Below are positions 2,392 to 55,629 of a stretch of 64,000 nt of DNA, piece by piece. The position numbers and the translations under genes are program-made. The first letter of the stretch is position 1; every line of letters starts with the position of its first letter. Location: sequence record OR525698.1. One strand, written 5' to 3'. Source of the DNA: Escherichia phage vB-Eco-KMB43. The notes beneath the pieces are model-generated. The model did no database searches. It was not told where the DNA came from and saw nothing but the letters and a program-made list of their open reading frames with translations.

Positions 2392-2586
2392 TTATACATT
2401 TTCAATCACCCATTGCAGATGGGCTTCTGCGTCAACCAGTTCAGCGCGGCTTTTCTCTAAGCACTTGCTGTATTCTTTACGTTCCCAATCAGCAATTTCG
2501 TTTTTCAGGACTTCTTCATAGTAAGCAATTACGCCTTTCAGGTCTGAAACTTTACGGCTTGCCAGTTCGATGTAATGGTTACGCAT
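2392..2586 (-). CDS. hypothetical protein (64 aa)
   Basis: small ORF in co-oriented array. Confidence 0.3.
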   Translation of the reverse strand: MRNHYIELASRKVSDLKGVIAYYEEVLKNEIADWERKEYSKCLEKSRAELVDAEAHLQWVIENV

Positions 2587-2782
2587 TTTGATTCTCCTTT
2601 GTTACTAGATAACGAATTTGGTCTTGCATTGCAATCAGTTCCCAGCGTGCTACTTTCATCATGGAAACTGCCTCTTTGAACATAATATTAGCTTTTTCCT
2701 TATTCCCTGTCAAGTAGATTTCTGCAATTTTTTCACAAAATTTTTGAGTTTCTTCATTCTTAAACGGTTTCATATAAGTCAA
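2579..2782 (-). CDS. hypothetical protein (67 aa)
   Basis: small ORF in co-oriented array. Confidence 0.3.
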   Translation of the reverse strand: MTYMKPFKNEETQKFCEKIAEIYLTGNKEKANIMFKEAVSMMKVARWELIAMQDQIRYLVTKENQNA

Positions 2783-2839
2783 CCTTTTATTTTCGATGGG
2801 GATATTATGATATATCCCCGATCCAGTGTCAACAGATTT

Positions 2840-3139
2840 TTAATCTTTTTTCAATGCATCCATTACTCGCTCTGCGATCAGTTCTCGTAAGCACTGATAA
2901 CCATGATATTTGATGGCAATGTCACGCAGATCATTAACCAGTTCCCGTACTTCATGGTCTTTCAAATCGTCTCTGTATTTCGATTTAACCGTGTCTTTAG
3001 GTGGATTGCGGATAACCTGAAAACCTTGTTCTGCAATCACTGCGGCTTCGCGCTGGCGTTCATGCTGTACTGTATTTTTGATCAGGTCTGCTTCCATGAA
3101 CTTTGCCATACTCATCATCATGTTATTCTTTTTGCTCAT
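2840..3139 (-). CDS. hypothetical protein (about 99 aa)
   Basis: ORF track extends to 3220 through the promoter; internal ATG at 3139 preceded by AGGA RBS chosen. Confidence 0.35.
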   Translation of the reverse strand: MSKKNNMMMSMAKFMEADLIKNTVQHERQREAAVIAEQGFQVIRNPPKDTVKSKYRDDLKDHEVRELVNDLRDIAIKYHGYQCLRELIAERVMDALKKD

Positions 3140-3173
3140 TATTAAATCCTCATAAAAGAAAAGGGAGACTCCC

Positions 3174-3201
3174 ATTATAGAGAATCTCCCTTGTGTGTCA
3201 A
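3174..3201 (-). promoter_or_regulatory. early promoter with hairpin (TTGACA, 16 nt, TATAAT; -10 inside stem-loop 3163-3190)
   Basis: read on minus strand; stem GGGAGA/TCTCCC encloses the -10. Confidence 0.5.
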
Positions 3202-3204
3202 GTG

Positions 3205-5028
3205 TTATGATTGCATCCAAATTTTGCGCTGATCTGCATCTTCACTATAGAGCAAATCGAATAGCTCTTTATAGTTTTCCGGTAACGTGATGATCTCCAT
3301 GACAGGATCGTTGATCACGCGATGATAGTCTGATTCTGTGAGCGATGCTAAACCTTTGATATATCGAATGTTGTAACCTTTGATATTATCTCGATCGTTC
3401 TCGAAATCTTCTAGGTCATAATACCATCGAACATCATCACCTTTCTTTGGTTCCGCAATGATAATAGGTGTTTTGATAAACCGGATTCGTCCATCTTCGA
3501 ACAATTCAGGCCAACGAGCAAAGAAAGAGATCAGACTAGGTTTAATAGACCCGATCCCGTCAGTATCAGCGTCGGTCATAATCGCAATATTTTTGTATTG
3601 CATAACTTCCAATGCATCAACACCAAATTGCAAGCCTGTGATCGCCATGATGTTAAAAATTTCGGCGTTCTTAACGATCTTTGCCTCCGGTTGTTCCCAC
3701 GTTGTAAGAGTTTTACCTCGCAACGGGAAACCTCCATGTAAATCTTGATCGCGTACAGAGATCAGATAGTTGATCGCGGAATCACCTTCCGTCAAAAACA
3801 GGGTAGTTTCTGCGTCAGTTCCAATAAGGTTAGCTTTAACGTGTTTTGCCACCTTAGCCCGTTTTGCTGCCTTTGCTGCCTTAGTCGCTGCCGCTTTATC
3901 TGCTGCCTCTTTGCGTGCCAGGACGACAGCAATAATAGGCATGATAATGTTTTCTTTCTTCGCAATGACTTTAGCCAGCTTTTTAAAATCAAGATCAATA
4001 TGACGCTTGATATCACCAGTCGGGTTAGTCAAGCGTTCTTTTGTCTGTGAATCAAAACGAAGGTTAGGCAATTCACGAACAATAAGAATACAGGTCAATC
4101 CAGATTTAACCGCAGCTTTAGTAACATCAACCTTATATTCTTTCTTGATTCGTTTTACAATCTCTTCACAAAGATCATCTGTCACGTAGTCTACGTGTGT
4201 TCCCCCGTTTTTGGTAAACAGACCATTAGCAAAGGATACTGATTTAAAACCTTCTCCCTCGACCGCAGGAACTAGGGCAAGTGAAAAGTTTTTATCTTCA
4301 ATGACAAACGGATCATCATTGTATAGTTTAGCATAATCCTTGAACTTACTAACAATACGTTTACCATTAAACTTAAACGTGATCTTAGGAAATATTACGC
4401 TCAATGATTGCAGACGATCATGAACAATATCTAAAACAGAGTTGTCCATCATATAACCTTCGAAGTGGTCGAAGTCTGGGCAAAATGTAACCTTTGTTCC
4501 CTTCAATTTTGATGGTTTCGATGACCATGTGATATTTTCAGCACCGTTTGTACATTGAACGGTCATTTCTGTTTCGCCGTCACAGGTCACACCAGTAAAC
4601 CAATCGCTAAAGAAATTTGACAACGACGACCCCACACCGTTCATCCCTTGCGTTAATCGATTGGTATCATCAAAGTTAGACCCTGCTTTTGTTCGTGTCC
4701 ATGCGGCTACAGGTTGCGGAATCTGCGTACCCTCTGGGGTAGTAACCATATGTTGAGGAATACCGCGACCGTTGTCTGTTACCGTAACAATATTGTTTTG
4801 GATATCGACGCTAATCACATTGGCAAATTCAAAATTAGTGCGGATCGCCTCGTCTACAGAGTTGTCGATGATCTCATCAATGATTTTAACCAGTCCAGGA
4901 ACGTATGAAATTTTTGTCCACTTACCGAACAGGAAACGTTGATGTTCTTCGTAAGTTGTTGATCCTATATACATTCCTGCACGCTTAAGGACATGTTCAC
5001 GATCAGATAAAATGCGGAACTCACTCAT
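3205..5028 (-). CDS. 39: DNA topoisomerase II large subunit (GyrB-like ATPase), continuous gp39 plus gp60-equivalent
   Basis: 607 aa; N-terminus LKRAGMYIGST and DNGRGIP GHKL motifs; length matches fused 39+60 of non-T4 T-even-like phages. Confidence 0.85.
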   Translation of the reverse strand: MSEFRILSDREHVLKRAGMYIGSTTYEEHQRFLFGKWTKISYVPGLVKIIDEIIDNSVDEAIRTNFEFANVISVDIQNNIVTVTDNGRGIPQHMVTTPEGTQIPQPVAAWTRTKAGSNFDDTNRLTQGMNGVGSSLSNFFSDWFTGVTCDGETEMTVQCTNGAENITWSSKPSKLKGTKVTFCPDFDHFEGYMMDNSVLDIVHDRLQSLSVIFPKITFKFNGKRIVSKFKDYAKLYNDDPFVIEDKNFSLALVPAVEGEGFKSVSFANGLFTKNGGTHVDYVTDDLCEEIVKRIKKEYKVDVTKAAVKSGLTCILIVRELPNLRFDSQTKERLTNPTGDIKRHIDLDFKKLAKVIAKKENIIMPIIAVVLARKEAADKAAATKAAKAAKRAKVAKHVKANLIGTDAETTLFLTEGDSAINYLISVRDQDLHGGFPLRGKTLTTWEQPEAKIVKNAEIFNIMAITGLQFGVDALEVMQYKNIAIMTDADTDGIGSIKPSLISFFARWPELFEDGRIRFIKTPIIIAEPKKGDDVRWYYDLEDFENDRDNIKGYNIRYIKGLASLTESDYHRVINDPVMEIITLPENYKELFDLLYSEDADQRKIWMQS

Positions 5029-32622: not shown

Positions 32623-33126
32623 TCAAATAATTTTTACTGGAATACTATTAACAATCTTGTATTGTACTTGATTGTCAGACCCCCGCCACGGCTTCTTCGT
32701 TGGCATATCTTTAATATAACGACCATCGATGAACATGTCAACTGATTCTACAATTTTTCTTTGCTCATCATTCAATTGGTCAAGGGTATAACCAGACCAT
32801 AGCCAAATATCTTTATTTGGCATCCATGATTTTACTTCATCGATGATCCGCTGTACACCCTTTAAATTGCGTTTATACAGTGGATCTCCACCTAAGAATG
32901 TTAGCCCCTGAATAAAATCAGGTCTAAGCAGATCCAGAATCAATCCCATTGTATCATCGGTGAATGGTTCCCCGTTCTTAGGATTGAGTAGACTAGCATT
33001 AAAGCAACCATCACATGCGTGTGAACATCCGGTAACGTAAAGGGAGACTCTCACTCCCTCACCGTTAACCATATCACAATCTTTAATATCGGCATAGCGT
33101 AATTTGCCGTATGTATCAGAACTCAT
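32623..33126 (-). CDS. nrdG: anaerobic ribonucleotide reductase activating protein (radical SAM)
   Basis: CSHACDGC cluster and TFLGGDP motif; ATG at 33126 (track start is TTG). Confidence 0.85.
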   Translation of the reverse strand: MSSDTYGKLRYADIKDCDMVNGEGVRVSLYVTGCSHACDGCFNASLLNPKNGEPFTDDTMGLILDLLRPDFIQGLTFLGGDPLYKRNLKGVQRIIDEVKSWMPNKDIWLWSGYTLDQLNDEQRKIVESVDMFIDGRYIKDMPTKKPWRGSDNQVQYKIVNSIPVKII

Positions 33127-33268
33127 ATTCAATTACCCCGAACTCGTTTACAATCTGCGCTTTATAGTAACCACCGCGAGATGCTAATAGATAAGCTGGG
33201 CTTAGGTATTCGTATTCGCGGATTTCTACTTGTGCGTTTTCAGTTTCCCAAATCAGTAAAGTCCACAT
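33116..33268 (-). CDS. small hypothetical protein (50 aa)
   Basis: ORF track runs through the upstream promoter; internal ATG at 33268 follows a GGAGAATCAAAT RBS. Confidence 0.25.
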   Translation of the reverse strand: MWTLLIWETENAQVEIREYEYLSPAYLLASRGGYYKAQIVNEFGVIEYEF

Positions 33269-33357: not shown

Positions 33358-33903
33358 TCAAAGTATTCTTTCTAGCCATTCGCGACCAGTCATATGAGTA
33401 CCCGCAATCATAAAATTATGGTCTGGCGAGGACCGAAACATATCTAAAATAAACTTCCGACATTCCTCATAGTCATCACGTTTAAGATAGACCACGTTCT
33501 CGCCAGTGCCAATAACTCCTTTACGATAGCCATGTTCTTTACGCGTAGACCATTGCACAGTATCCTTTTTAACTCGAATCACGATTGGTTCCCAATATCC
33601 AGCACATCCAGCATGACCACACGAACAAGTAAGGAAGTATTGACCCTTTGCTTTGTTCTCATCCCATCCAACATTAATCGGATAACATTCATGAAACAAT
33701 GCTAAAACATCATGTGTCTCGTCAATATCTTTATCGTCAATTCGTGCAGTAAACACCCAAACAGGGATCTTATTACCTATTGGTTCATAATCATCGCCCC
33801 ACTCGTCATAAATAGTTTCTAAGGTCATATCAATATTGATTGATTTTGCCGCGTCAATATGTCGTTGTGCTTTACGTTTACGGTTTAATGATTTCATAGT
33901 CAC
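33358..33903 (-). CDS. hypothetical protein (181 aa)
   Basis: ORF between nrdD and nrdG; Cys/His-rich stretch CSCGHAGCAGYW. Confidence 0.4.
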   Translation of the reverse strand: MTMKSLNRKRKAQRHIDAAKSINIDMTLETIYDEWGDDYEPIGNKIPVWVFTARIDDKDIDETHDVLALFHECYPINVGWDENKAKGQYFLTCSCGHAGCAGYWEPIVIRVKKDTVQWSTRKEHGYRKGVIGTGENVVYLKRDDYEECRKFILDMFRSSPDHNFMIAGTHMTGREWLERIL

Positions 33904-33914
33904 CTCACATTATT

Positions 33915-34454
33915 TCAAAGATCGCGATATTGTACATTATGAAAATGAGAACTTGCATTACCAATATTGTAGATAACAAATTCTTCATCCGGCGCTTGCG
34001 CTACAAATTGAGTATGAGCAACCGCCACAACCTTAAAAATACGATCCGTGATCTTGTGTTTAATTTCTGCCCCTACTTCCATAGGAACATATTCATTTGT
34101 TTCTGTTTCAGTCGCAAAACAGCCATCTTCTTCATAAGCACGAACAAATCGGTCGCAATCAGTACGCTTAACAAATTCAAGAGTATATAATTCTCGTGAA
34201 TTGTCGGTATAGACCAATACAGAATTATTATGATAGCGAATCACATACAGGTTATTATCATCGTCAATTACGCAAAAGCTACGGATTCCTTCGCCTTGAC
34301 TCCAGCAGATATTAACCACCGTTCCTCTAATAAAAAAACTTTCCTTTAAATTAAAACTAGCCAATGTGCTAGCGTGCATTTTAACAACAACGCCATCACC
34401 AATTTCCAGTTTACGAAGTTTAACTTCTTTGCTCAGTACACAAAACATCATCAT
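33915..34454 (-). CDS. hypothetical protein (179 aa)
   Basis: ORF directly downstream of the nrdD terminator-promoter cassette. Confidence 0.4.
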   Translation of the reverse strand: MMMFCVLSKEVKLRKLEIGDGVVVKMHASTLASFNLKESFFIRGTVVNICWSQGEGIRSFCVIDDDNNLYVIRYHNNSVLVYTDNSRELYTLEFVKRTDCDRFVRAYEEDGCFATETETNEYVPMEVGAEIKHKITDRIFKVVAVAHTQFVAQAPDEEFVIYNIGNASSHFHNVQYRDL

Positions 34455-34554: not shown

Positions 34555-36417
34555 TTACATGTGCTTAACGCGGTTTACCATCTCGGAGTGTTTCCCGTGG
34601 TTAAATGGACGCAGATCAACAGATCCAAGATATCCACTAACGCGACGGATAACATTCATCTTTTCCAGATTGTCATTGCCGCAATCAGGGCAAACAAAAC
34701 CAGACTCGGTCGCTCTCATTTCCTTATTAGATCCGCATACATGACATACATCAGAAGGAGTATTAACACCGAAGTAGTGCAATTTATCCATTGCATAGTC
34801 TACTACAGTTTCAAGACCTTTCAGGTTGTTTTTCATGTCTGGGAACTCAACATAAGAGATCATGCCACCGGACGCCAGCCAGTGATAATCTTTCTCAAAG
34901 TCGATTTTCTCAAACGGTGTGACTTTCCGGTCTACGTCAAGGTGGAATGAGTTGGTGTACCAGTCTTTATCGGTAGCACCCTTAACAATACCAAATTGCT
35001 CTCGGTCCAGTCGATTAAATCGATAGCAAAGGCTCTCGGCTGGAGTACCGTAAAGACTAAACCCAAGTCCGGTTTCGTCCTTCCATTTTTCAGTATAATG
35101 ACGCAAGATCTTAAGAATATGTTTACCGTATCGCTGCGCATCTTCCGAATCAAACGGATGAACACCAAACAGGACGCTCAATACCTCATGTAAACCAATA
35201 TATCCAAGAGAGATACTAGCGCGACCATCTTTCAACACTTCCAAAATTTCATCGTTTTGATGAATACGGAAAAACGCACCTTCGGTATACAGTACAGGAG
35301 CAACATTGGCTTTAGCACCTTTTAAAGCGTCTACGCGACTCATGAGCGCATCAAAGCAAATAGGCATACGATTAGCTAGCTCTTGTTCGAATAGCTCAAT
35401 TCTGCGCATTACAGACGCTTTACCAGCACGACGCGCGGCAATAAGGGCAATACGCGGAAGATTCAGAGTCACAACACCTAAGTTATTACGTCCGTCTAAT
35501 ACTTCCTCGCCTTTCTCATTATGCCACACACCCAGGAAGCTACGACAACCCATCGGGCTAACCGGAACACTAGATCCGGTGATACTACGGTTATTCTTCG
35601 CAGAGATATAATCAGGGTAAAGACGCTTACTAGAACATTCCAATGCAAGTTGCTTAATGTCGTAGTTCGGATCTTCCGGTTTAAGGTTTAATCCTTCTTC
35701 TAAGAACATCACCAGCTTAGGAAACACCGGAGTGATACCATCTTTACCTAAACCTTTAGTTCGAACGTTCAGGATCGCTTTCTGAATCAGTTTTTCTTCC
35801 CAGCTAGTCCCCATACCAAATGTTAAAGTCACAAAAGGTGTTTGACCGTTGGTGGAGAACAAAGTGTTGATTTCATATTCCAACGCTTGATACCCGTCTA
35901 GCGTTTCTTTTTCTGTCTTCTCTTGTGCATAGAGAGTATCCGCTTTGATTCCGTAGGTTTCGGCATCAGCAAGGTGTTTATGATATGTTTTCTCAACGTA
36001 TGGCGCTAAAACCTGATCGATGTTTGCAATTGTGGTCCCGCCATATTGATGACTTGCCACCTGTGCGATAATTTGAGCGGTTACAGCACAAGCAACGCCG
36101 ATTGATTTCGGACTTTCGATTTGTGCGCTACCCAATTTAAAACCATTCTCTAACATGTCTTTGAGGTTAACAAGACAGCAGTTAGTAAACGGCATAGCGG
36201 GTGCATAATCCATATCATGATAATGAATGTCACCGTCTACATGCGCTTTATAGATGTGCTCAGGTAACACGGTTTTAGCAATCTGTTTAGACACAGCACC
36301 AGCAATCAGATCTCGACGTGTCGGGAATGTTCGCGCGTCTTTGTTCGCGTTCTCTTTGCTTACTTCGTTTTCTTTACCCGTTGCGATCTCTGTAATGTCT
36401 TTGATTAGTTTTTCCAT
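34555..36417 (-). CDS. nrdD: anaerobic ribonucleoside-triphosphate reductase (class III, glycyl radical)
   Basis: 620 aa; C-terminal zinc ribbon CHVCG...CPDCG and glycyl-radical-type RRVSGYLG; T4 NrdD length. Confidence 0.9.
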   Translation of the reverse strand: MEKLIKDITEIATGKENEVSKENANKDARTFPTRRDLIAGAVSKQIAKTVLPEHIYKAHVDGDIHYHDMDYAPAMPFTNCCLVNLKDMLENGFKLGSAQIESPKSIGVACAVTAQIIAQVASHQYGGTTIANIDQVLAPYVEKTYHKHLADAETYGIKADTLYAQEKTEKETLDGYQALEYEINTLFSTNGQTPFVTLTFGMGTSWEEKLIQKAILNVRTKGLGKDGITPVFPKLVMFLEEGLNLKPEDPNYDIKQLALECSSKRLYPDYISAKNNRSITGSSVPVSPMGCRSFLGVWHNEKGEEVLDGRNNLGVVTLNLPRIALIAARRAGKASVMRRIELFEQELANRMPICFDALMSRVDALKGAKANVAPVLYTEGAFFRIHQNDEILEVLKDGRASISLGYIGLHEVLSVLFGVHPFDSEDAQRYGKHILKILRHYTEKWKDETGLGFSLYGTPAESLCYRFNRLDREQFGIVKGATDKDWYTNSFHLDVDRKVTPFEKIDFEKDYHWLASGGMISYVEFPDMKNNLKGLETVVDYAMDKLHYFGVNTPSDVCHVCGSNKEMRATESGFVCPDCGNDNLEKMNVIRRVSGYLGSVDLRPFNHGKHSEMVNRVKHM

Positions 36418-52727: not shown

Positions 52728-53426
52728 CTAACCACGGGTATAGTGTTCCAGAACAACTGTCAGATGAATATATTCTAATAAATCTTTCCAAAAGTCAACA
52801 TCTGGTTCTTCCGGCATACCGTTTTTCTTTGCCTCTTCACGAGCGAGTTTAACACGCTCGTAGAGATCTTTCAATTCTTCCCGCACATTATCAAAGGTTC
52901 TTTCTCCTAACTTACACGCTAAAATAGAAGAACGTCGCGCGAGCGGGAATTGTAGATCACCTGTCTGATAGATTTCAAGTAGCTGATAACCAACACGCAG
53001 AGCATGAGAAAGATCTTTCCAGTTACTGAAATACTTTTCAGATTTGGCTACCTGCTTTTTGAGATAGCCAGACAAACCCCACATACCAACATGATAGAAT
53101 TTATCTCGATGTGTTCGGATGTATTCCCATTCTCTGGAGGATTCAATCAACATGTTACTAGGAGCGTGCACCATGTCAATAGCGCCGATATCGCCTTTAC
53201 ATGCCAGATTGATAAACCGTTTTAGACTGAACATATTAACATCAATATCGTCTTTGGTGTTCTTGATACCTTGACCGCTAGTGCTTTGGTCATAGTGTTC
53301 TTTCATCGATCCTAAGATAATTTCTTTCGCAGTCGGAACAAAGATACCACGATAATCTTTATCGGAATTTTCAGTATCAAGGCCGTATAAGTGAGATCCG
53401 AAGACCATTTTAACCATTGTATGCAT
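52728..53426 (-). CDS. polymerase-beta superfamily nucleotidyltransferase (232 aa)
   Basis: N-terminal FGSHLYGLDTENSDKDYRGIF fits the GS-x(9-13)-DxD minimal NTase signature. Confidence 0.55.
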   Translation of the reverse strand: MHTMVKMVFGSHLYGLDTENSDKDYRGIFVPTAKEIILGSMKEHYDQSTSGQGIKNTKDDIDVNMFSLKRFINLACKGDIGAIDMVHAPSNMLIESSREWEYIRTHRDKFYHVGMWGLSGYLKKQVAKSEKYFSNWKDLSHALRVGYQLLEIYQTGDLQFPLARRSSILACKLGERTFDNVREELKDLYERVKLAREEAKKNGMPEEPDVDFWKDLLEYIHLTVVLEHYTRG

Positions 53427-53469
53427 AATTAAACCCTCAGTTGATTAAGAGATTGCATCATATCATCAT

Positions 53470-53500
53470 AAAACGAAAAAGCCAACCCTTTTCGGATTGG
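53470..53500 (-). terminator. rho-independent terminator after grcA
   Basis: AGCCAATCC-GAAAA-GGGTTGGCT hairpin then TTTTTCGTTTT. Confidence 0.6.
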
Positions 53501-53512
53501 CTTGATGAAAAA

Positions 53513-53929
53513 TTAGAGAGATTCGGTAAAGGTACGAGCGATAACATCACGTTGCTGGTCTGGAGTCAGACTATTGAAGCGCACTGCGTAACCAGAAACG
53601 CGAATTGTAAGCTGCGGGTACTTCTCAGGATGTTCAACAGCGTCCAGCAACATTTCTCGTAACAATACGTTAACATTCAAATGCTGACCACCTTCGACAA
53701 CCGGAGCACCATTATCTACAATCACCGGACGGAAGCTAGTTGTGTGCAGTGCCAGCGAATCGACGTCTTCTGCGGTGATCACATGGTCTTCTGCGAAAGT
53801 TTTACTAACAATTACTTTAGCGCCGATCAGTGCTTTCGGTTCGGATACCAGAATCATAGGCGCGAAGTGTCCACCAATAATAGTACCTTTATGTTCACCT
53901 TTCATGATTTGAATTGCTTTAAATTCCAT
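53513..53929 (-). CDS. grcA: autonomous glycyl radical cofactor, GrcA/YfiD-like
   Basis: C-terminal [11 protein letters not shown]...[39 protein letters not shown] is near-identical to E. coli YfiD. Confidence 0.85.
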
Positions 53930-54064
53930 AATTCACCTCTTATAGATCAGGACGTTCGTCATTAATTTTACCAACCAAAACACCATAGAGTTTATCAGGT
54001 TGGACTTTACGATTCTTATTGATTTTAGCACGGAATCGACGAGCTACGCTATCTTTATTTTTCA

Positions 54065-54556
54065 TTAGTTGATACCTAAGCCAATGAAAATAGGTTGGTC
54101 TTCTACATTACCCATCCCAACACTAAGTCGATTTACTTCTAAAAACTGCAATACGCTGTCAGTAAATCCGCGCATGGTAGTATCTAGGATAAAAATTGTT
54201 TTGTCAAGACTACGACCTCGCCATGTGATCGGATTCAGGAAAGTTCGGATCGACGTACAATCTACATTTGAAATATTTACATTTTCACCGCGACCGCGAT
54301 CTCGGATCGTTTTGGCATGTCCCCGCGTCGTTGAAACGATAAAGACACTATAGCCTTTTCTCGTATAATGGTCATATAACTTGATTGTAGCGTCTGTATG
54401 CCCTGTCTGACGGCCTAAATTGATTGAGACAATGGAATCTAGGTCATCAGCAAAATTGCGTCGCTTACGGCGTTCTATGATGCAATTTACGGCAGAAATA
54501 CACGCAGCATAAATCAAATCTTTACTTTCTAATTCTAAATCAATGTCAATATTCAT
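54065..54556 (-). CDS. hypothetical protein (163 aa)
   Basis: ORF; basic RRKRRN patch; no motif recognised. Confidence 0.4.
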   Translation of the reverse strand: MNIDIDLELESKDLIYAACISAVNCIIERRKRRNFADDLDSIVSINLGRQTGHTDATIKLYDHYTRKGYSVFIVSTTRGHAKTIRDRGRGENVNISNVDCTSIRTFLNPITWRGRSLDKTIFILDTTMRGFTDSVLQFLEVNRLSVGMGNVEDQPIFIGLGIN

Positions 54557-54618
54557 GGTAAAGTCTCCAGTGAACGGGGAGAGATCCTTAGATTGTCTCC
54601 CCGTTGATGGTTAATATT

Positions 54619-55194
54619 TTATTTTGGATCTGGGAAATTCAATAGAGCATATTCTCCATAAAATTTCCTAGCTGCATTATCATAAGCGATTGCAGCTTCG
54701 ATTTCTGTGTCATATTGTCCAAGAACATGTCTTTGTAGGTTGACCATTATACTAGCTCTCCATTTCTTACGCAAATCCTTCCTGTTACACTTACTAACAC
54801 CCTTATACACACTAGAAAACTTTTTAGACTTCTTCTTTCTATTATGTTGATTTTGCGCGTCGGTTGCCTCCCTAAGATTTGGAGGATTGTTATTAGCAGG
54901 ATTACCGTCAATATGATCAATTAATCTAACTTGCGTCCCATGTTCTAGAAACCAAACAACCCTATGCACGAATAAATGAACTCTAGGAAGACCGTCATCT
55001 CTACTATGCCAAAATCGAAGATGACCATCTTTATTTGTTCTGACTTTAACTAAATCGCCGTGTTTATATCTACTCCCTAATGGTCGTCCTTTGATAGCTT
55101 TACTATCGACTCTATAATATAAGATACCCTCTATATGAGCATATCTAAGTTTTATCTCGTTTTGTAGGGATTCATCCCAATATTTAAAAGCCAT
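54619..55194 (-). CDS. HNH homing endonuclease with AP2-like domain
   Basis: HRVVWFLEHG...IDHIDGNPANNNPPNLREAT HNH motif; YKGVS...GQYDTEIEAAIAYDNAARKFYG AP2-like module. Confidence 0.75.
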   Translation of the reverse strand: MAFKYWDESLQNEIKLRYAHIEGILYYRVDSKAIKGRPLGSRYKHGDLVKVRTNKDGHLRFWHSRDDGLPRVHLFVHRVVWFLEHGTQVRLIDHIDGNPANNNPPNLREATDAQNQHNRKKKSKKFSSVYKGVSKCNRKDLRKKWRASIMVNLQRHVLGQYDTEIEAAIAYDNAARKFYGEYALLNFPDPK

Positions 55195-55239
55195 TTTATA
55201 ATCCTCACAAAGCCAGCGATTAAGCTGGCTTGATTTTAG

Positions 55240-55629
55240 TTATACCGGGTCTGGATATACCTTTTTATCGAGTTCCATATGCGGTCCGTCTTTAAAAGTA
55301 ACCCAATCAACACCGCAGATAACAGGAACACCCAATTCTCGACCAGCTTGTTTAAATGCATCCGCGATCATGCGGTAGTATTTCATGTTCCATGTATCCT
55401 TATCTTTCGGATACGCTACAACGTCAACCGCGAAACCGTGAAGATGACGAGATTTCATAGTCTTAGATTTACCTTCCGCAACATATTTCTTTTGCGTTTC
55501 TAGACTACGTACACCTTCCGTAATACCAAAATCGACCGGAGTCAGTTCTAACGCACGATGAACGACTTTTACCAGGTCAGGATGCACACCAACAAGCCGA
55601 TCTTTGCTTCTTTGAGATAATTTAAACAT
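55240..55629 (-). CDS. endolysin, L-alanyl-D-glutamate peptidase (M15/VanY-like)
   Basis: SRHLHGFAVDV...DGPHMEL zinc-binding H..D..H pattern; resembles phage T5-type endolysin. Confidence 0.7.
   Translation of the reverse strand: MFKLSQRSKDRLVGVHPDLVKVVHRALELTPVDFGITEGVRSLETQKKYVAEGKSKTMKSRHLHGFAVDVVAYPKDKDTWNMKYYRMIADAFKQAGRELGVPVICGVDWVTFKDGPHMELDKKVYPDPV

Follow-up and report, generated by a model that had tools for sequence, protein, structure and literature searches.

The phage-borne autonomous glycyl radical cofactor (GrcA/vs.6) of Escherichia phage vB-Eco-KMB43, a Krischvirus

Pyruvate formate-lyase (PFL) is the formate source of the cell. In Escherichia coli, the C-terminal module of the YfiD protein (GrcA) duplicates the PFL C-terminus, inclusive of the beta-strand y-beta1, which corresponds to PFL beta10 (PMC8683613). 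Two such 'spare part' proteins have been validated experimentally, E. coli YfiD and Y06I of phage T4 (PMC8683613). In both cases a glycyl radical is put in place by the PFL activase (for Y06I, that of the host), and the activated protein then forms a complex with PFL that oxygen has cleaved and gives it back its activity, according to the account that the same article gives of Wagner et al. 2001. We take Y06I to be the product of T4 vs.6 from the matching description; a source linking the two names was not found in the literature search. Efficient installation of the radical on YfiD takes place only when cleaved PFL is present, and residues 1-60 of the protein, which are disordered, promote both the binding of cleaved PFL and radical installation (PMC8683613). 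In vivo, GrcA gives formate production back to a strain carrying PflB G734A (PMC12338860). In phages, a Gly_radical match of RB49 vs.6 was published in 2006 by Nolan et al., with 6 of the 6 T4-like genomes analysed, and a role of vs.6 in nucleotide metabolism was guessed (PMC1524935).

The DNA analysed, called the window throughout, is a stretch of 64,000 nt of Escherichia phage vB-Eco-KMB43 (OR525698.1), given as one strand. The phage is a Krischvirus, i.e. an RB49-like coliphage of the T-even type. The grcA (vs.6) coding sequence, assigned from the ORF and its family matches, occupies positions 53513..53929 of the minus strand as an uninterrupted frame, which starts with ATG and measures 138 codons plus stop. 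A Shine-Dalgarno sequence, GAGGTG (53934..53939, minus strand), is read 4 nt 5' of the ATG. At the opposite side, 9 nt past the stop codon, begins a terminator-like intrinsic hairpin (53479..53503, minus strand), made by a 10-bp stem followed by the T-rich sequence TTTCGTTTT. Within the 1.6-kb stretch that they match (window 53000-54600), the records of G2494, G5211 and TB34 likewise carry a terminator annotation. The gene found directly 3' of grcA is nrdC.11 (52728-53426, minus strand), the product of which matches the Pfam family RlaP (E 3.4e-14), RNA-repair-pathway nucleotidyltransferases of the DNA polymerase beta family.

Two ORFs precede grcA on the same strand, vs.8 (54065..54556) and, between vs.8 and grcA, an ORF of 41 aa (53940..54065); at the matching place the RB49 annotation features RB49p100 and p101. 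These upstream genes (53940..54556) leave no promoter space to grcA, and are probably co-transcribed with it. Late (TATAAATA) and MotA-box motifs are both missing from the minus strand across 53400..55500, and sigma-70-like matches in the region, 14 against 9.2 +/- 2.8 expected from shuffled sequences, are not clearly above that level; a dedicated grcA promoter was accordingly rejected. A GC-rich hairpin not followed by a T-run, CAACGGGGAGA...TCTCCCCGTT, is located further upstream (54557-54618, minus strand), between an ORF of the HNH-AP2 type and vs.8; a terminator is marked there or close by in some related records.

Residues 78-119 of the phage GrcA match the Pfam Gly_radical model up to the model end (E 1.5e-16), and the match to PHROG family phrog_1209 spans residues 3-138. 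The best NCBIfam family is TIGR04365 ('autonomous glycyl radical cofactor GrcA', E 3.9e-39). The score obtained on this equivalog model (133.8 bits) is below the curated cutoff of 170, but so is that of T4 vs.6, used as control (151.1 bits; E. coli GrcA scores 234), and the shortfall would therefore reflect the N-terminal divergence of the phage members. The cutoff score excepted, all the features which define GrcA at the sequence level are present. Among PDB entries, residues 37-138 are aligned with residues 29-127 of E. coli YfiD/GrcA (PDB 6owr, NMR structure; E 5.8e-33), and residues 77-138 with residues 698-759 of PflB (PDB 1h16; E 5.8e-27).

The C-terminal glycyl radical module thus corresponds to residues 77-138 (53516..53701, minus strand), homologous to PflB 698-759 and GrcA 66-127. 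Over these 62 residues, the phage protein is identical to E. coli K-12 GrcA at 56, to T4 vs.6 at 54, and to both PflB and TdcE of E. coli K-12 at 50. The preliminary description had called the product a GrcA/YfiD homolog, near-identical over some 60 C-terminal residues; the figures bear this out, and the 13-residue radical loop is an exact match to E. coli GrcA. The alignment to YfiD/GrcA and PFL C-termini proposed there as a check finds the key glycine kept. This residue is Gly113 (codon 53593..53591), set in the RVSGY motif (53588..53602, minus strand), which was located by motif scan and alignment. The heptapeptide around it, RVSGYAV, is identical to the peptide substrate of the PFL activase (PFL-AE), a peptide that has been crystallised in complex with PFL-AE (PDB 3CB8; PMC10665898). 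The 11 residues of the y-beta1 strand ahead of the loop are identical in phage GrcA, E. coli GrcA and PflB, and the 12 residues at the C-terminus match E. coli GrcA exactly. The protein contains no cysteines. On the pyruvate formate-lyase model TIGR01255 it covers positions 683-744 of 744 only, scoring 88 bits where the cutoff is 994. The possibility that the gene encodes a pyruvate formate-lyase was rejected, as both the barrel and the catalytic Cys418/Cys419 are missing (E. coli PflB measures 759 aa).

The N-terminal region, residues 1-76 (53702..53929, minus strand), is homologous to the equivalent regions in T4 vs.6 and in E. coli GrcA, but far more divergent than the module. Blocks shared with T4 vs.6 are seen in the alignment as KAxQI..G.HKGTI and IVSKTF.ED; the pairs, window versus T4, are a 14-residue block versus KAYQILEGTHKGTI, and IVSKTFAED versus IVSKTFKED. 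Blocks shared with E. coli GrcA are weaker (IQI.K and IV.K..(F/Y)AED). Since homology extends to the N-terminal half, and identity to T4 vs.6 is 58% over the full length, N-terminal blocks included, the phage gene is a whole-gene ortholog of vs.6, and not a PFL tail independently captured.

The genomic setting is conserved. Over the 1.6 kb around grcA, ELT4, kaaroe, RB49, Phi1 and about 55 further records show 97-99% identity to the window. The RB49 counterpart is RB49p099, which is annotated as vs.6 and has nrdC.11 and vs.8 as neighbours. In T4 the order is vs.5 - vs.6 - vs.7 - vs.8, and vs.6 (UniProt P13316, GRCA_BPT4) carries the annotation 'autonomous glycyl radical cofactor GrcA'. The identical 138-aa protein already occurs on 148 public contigs, under names which include 'autonomous glycyl radical cofactor' and 'Glycine radical domain-containing protein (Krischvirus)'; the Skers protein, 100% identical to that of the window, goes by 'putative autonomous glycyl radical cofactor'. 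By tblastn, homologs were identified in 1580 phage records of several families, T4-like, T5-like and some jumbo phages included. Labels given to the same gene vary ('pyruvate formate-lyase', '2-ketobutyrate formate-lyase', 'putative acetyltransferase-like protein', 'hypothetical protein', 'GrcA'); among those found in GenBank, 'pyruvate formate-lyase' is a misnomer. Some records call the adjacent vs.8 'thioredoxin' or 'glutaredoxin nrdC', names for which no family support was seen.

Synonymous sites of the radical module are saturated in comparisons of the window gene to E. coli grcA and T4 vs.6 (pS 0.77-0.79), while pN measures 0.08-0.11. Third positions match at 27-30 of the 62 codons when grcA, T4 vs.6, pflB and tdcE are considered (27-28 for grcA and T4 vs.6), and nucleotide identity to the four genes is 72-73%, and equally 73% to grcA, pflB and tdcE. 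In the N-terminal half pN rises to 0.45-0.55 against T4 and E. coli. Saturation of the synonymous sites in a module 81-90% identical as protein denotes strong, long-term purifying selection on grcA. In BLASTN searches of 5426 E. coli genomes, the best match was 75.7% over 185 nt. A back-translated search for a 14-residue module signature in 185,579 species-representative bacterial genomes gave no matches. Recent capture from E. coli was rejected for the phage of the window, DNA identity to pflB, grcA and tdcE being about 73-76%. As judged from these comparisons, grcA of the window has long resided in phages under selective constraint, and is no recent passenger.

Other phages show different histories. 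The module of T4 vs.6 (NC_000866; 7558-7920 in locus numbering) is identical to E. coli K-12 grcA (4067-4450) at 178 of 186 nt, or 96%, with 59 of 62 third positions matching; in its N-terminal part, the gene has reached saturation at synonymous sites (pS 0.71). The pattern suggests that gene conversion between a T4-type phage and its host has recently occurred, affecting the module alone. A tract of this kind is missing from the module of the window grcA, which is 73% identical to E. coli grcA at the nucleotide level. In Shigella phage JK32, also a Krischvirus (2501-3558 in locus numbering), the first 70 codons of grcA are near-identical to those of the window, and a divergent radical module is substituted; the terminator is again conserved, and an extra HNH endonuclease gene is found directly downstream. 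This is probably the co-conversion tract of a homing event. An ORF of 191 aa with HNH_3 and AP2 domains, homing endonuclease-like, resides also in the window (54619..55194, minus strand), between vs.8 and the genes at the endolysin side. It is full-length in only 13 of 55 related Krischvirus records, and neither RB49 (NC_005066) nor Skers has it at that place; mobile endonuclease genes typically show such a sporadic distribution.

The reading that we favour, at a probability of roughly 0.85, is that the ORF is the Krischvirus ortholog of T4 vs.6, and that its product would play the part of an autonomous glycyl radical cofactor reviving host PFL cleaved by oxygen. Action of the phage protein in the manner of its T4 and E. 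coli counterparts, and a benefit to the phage, are what we infer from the likeness of the sequences. Oxygen would cleave the active host enzyme at Gly734. The phage GrcA would bind the cleaved PflB (possibly TdcE too), its N-terminal half aiding the docking, and its 62 C-terminal residues would replace the lost PflB C-terminus. Host PflA would remove a hydrogen from the RVSGYAV loop, at Gly113, the radical would be handed from Gly113 to Cys419 of PflB, and pyruvate conversion into acetyl-CoA plus formate would restart without making a new 85-kDa subunit. In microaerobic infections, the supply of fermentative ATP and acetyl-CoA may be sustained in this way, as may that of formate, to serve as the reductant of the phage's class III ribonucleotide reductase (RNR). 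The same mechanism is assigned to the phage protein because the y-beta1 strand, the RVSGYAV heptapeptide and the C-terminal sequence are all present; as the N-terminal docking half is strongly diverged, the affinity for cleaved PFL could differ. Activation by NrdG or host PflA, with rescue of host PFL or conceivably of NrdD, had been proposed in the preliminary description. The branch through host PflA and PFL agrees with what is described for the T4 ortholog Y06I; that through NrdG and NrdD is disfavoured, as the phage GrcA has no more than RVSGY in common with NrdD, and features no cysteine. An infection phenotype of a phage grcA mutant was not found in the literature searched.

The same phage encodes, as had been reported earlier, NrdD with the loop RRVSGYLG, and NrdG. 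The class III RNR NrdD (34555..36417, minus strand; NF006732, 879.6 bits) carries the loop NVIRRVSGYLG (RVSGY at 34630..34644), and the NrdD activase NrdG (32623..33132, minus strand) scores 165.9 bits on TIGR02491, the cutoff of which is 126.1. NrdG is the only radical-SAM match among the window ORFs scanned. Both genes lie 17-21 kb from grcA, in the same genome but outside its operon. Between nrdD and nrdG, which thus are not adjacent in this phage, lie two ORFs (179 and 181 aa; 33358-34454, minus strand) without Pfam or NCBIfam match. Just ahead of its radical loop NrdD features four cysteines, CHVC...CPDC, presumably the metal site of the radical domain.

Coexistence of grcA with nrdD and nrdG in one genome, the RVSGY pentapeptide common to GrcA and NrdD, and the nucleotide-metabolism role on which Nolan et al. 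2006 speculated (PMC1524935) might indicate that the phage GrcA serves the class III RNR of the phage itself as a spare radical domain, charged by NrdG and replacing the C-terminus of oxygen-cleaved NrdD. This is most unlikely. BLASTP of phage GrcA against phage NrdD finds the five residues RVSGY and nothing else (E 1.7), on which ground a spare part for NrdD was rejected. The CxxC...CxxC cluster and the NrdD-type flanks are missing from GrcA, the module is of the PflB type throughout, with the 50 of 62 identities to PflB 698-759 reported above, and the partners of the T4 ortholog, in the summary of PMC8683613, are PFL-AE and PFL. NrdG activation of the phage GrcA is likewise improbable, because loop and flanks are of the PFL type and the T4 protein depends on PFL-AE in the published account. 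It would be surprising, then, if NrdG charged GrcA instead of, or besides, PflA, to form with NrdD a self-sufficient kit in which host PFL, revived by GrcA once oxygen has struck, supplies formate to NrdD. Considerably likelier than such a kit is formate coupling alone, by which host PFL, once revived, would feed the phage NrdD with reductant; we regard this as a tentative possibility. Class III RNRs, that of T4 included, take their reducing power from formate (PMC4493059), and a metabolic link whereby formate made by PFL would be consumed by the class III RNR is plausible.

Two further explanations leave the NrdD question aside. The gene might be a passenger, a fragment of a host gene (the pflB 3' end, or grcA) functionless in infection. 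The module is indeed host-like in protein sequence, and the 96% DNA identity of the T4 module to E. coli grcA tells that exchange between phage and host does occur. The module of the window is, however, 73% identical in DNA to grcA, pflB and tdcE, with third positions randomised while the protein is conserved at 81-90%; its signature is encoded by none of the bacterial species-representative genomes searched, whereas the gene is conserved in 1580 phage records of several families, and features a GrcA-homologous N-terminal half, a ribosome-binding site of its own, and a terminator. A mere passenger is hardly credible. The divergence of the N-terminal half, where docking would take place, strongly unlike that of the host protein, could alternatively denote a protein that modulates instead of repairing, and an altered outcome of binding is compatible with the sequence. 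By competing with host GrcA, or by occupying PFL or PflA, the protein would redirect or damp host fermentation, for instance by drawing PflA away, or by altering the flux of formate through FocA. All the residue classes on which catalytic competence depends (the radical loop, the y-beta1 strand, the region of the C-terminal helix) are retained, and the T4 protein, as summarised in PMC8683613, restores activity in vitro, and does not inhibit it. Modulation is thus quite unlikely, and repair of oxygen-cleaved host PFL is preferred.

As a discovery, the phage grcA matters little, since family, phage members and mechanism have been known since 2001. All three are in the literature, and the exact protein is public and correctly named; the system is to be considered already known. 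The varied GenBank labels could be harmonised to GrcA. The benefit for the phage may be that fermentation is kept running, or that formate is supplied for anaerobic dNTP synthesis.

Among described systems, T4 vs.6 is the closest. It is the ortholog, by full-length identity, the 54/62 module residues and the shared N-terminal blocks, and resides in the same neighbourhood, adjoining vs.8 on the same strand in the tk-vs-regB early region. The T4 protein measures 120 aa and that of the window 138 aa, 18 more; 12 of the extra residues fall in the N-terminal half, within an 18-residue stretch, and 6 near the module junction. In the module, the stretch RETLEDAVKH of T4 and E. coli GrcA is replaced in the window by 'REMLLDA', which is PflB/TdcE-like, and DNA identity to E. 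coli grcA is 96% for T4 and 73% for the window. E. coli GrcA/YfiD (P68066; 6owr) has the same architecture, 56/62 module residues, and exactly the same loop and C-terminus. The N-terminal halves of the two can hardly be aligned (pN 0.55) and the window protein is 11 residues longer, the length gap relative to both T4 vs.6 and E. coli GrcA falling mostly in the N-terminal half. In contrast to the E. coli gene, that of the window is phage-borne, is part of an early-region gene run, has its own terminator, and scores below the NCBIfam equivalog cutoff. The C-terminal domains of PflB (698-759) and TdcE, the piece destroyed by oxygen cleavage, share 50/62 residues each with the phage GrcA, which differs from both enzymes in having neither the catalytic barrel nor Cys418/Cys419. 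With the NrdD domains of phage and E. coli, likeness is limited to the RVSGY pentapeptide and to glycyl radical chemistry in general; NrdD differs by the four-cysteine cluster before the loop and by its activase, NrdG, and further similarity is not detectable. The differences in length and module sequence seen in the window GrcA are minor variations within a known kind.
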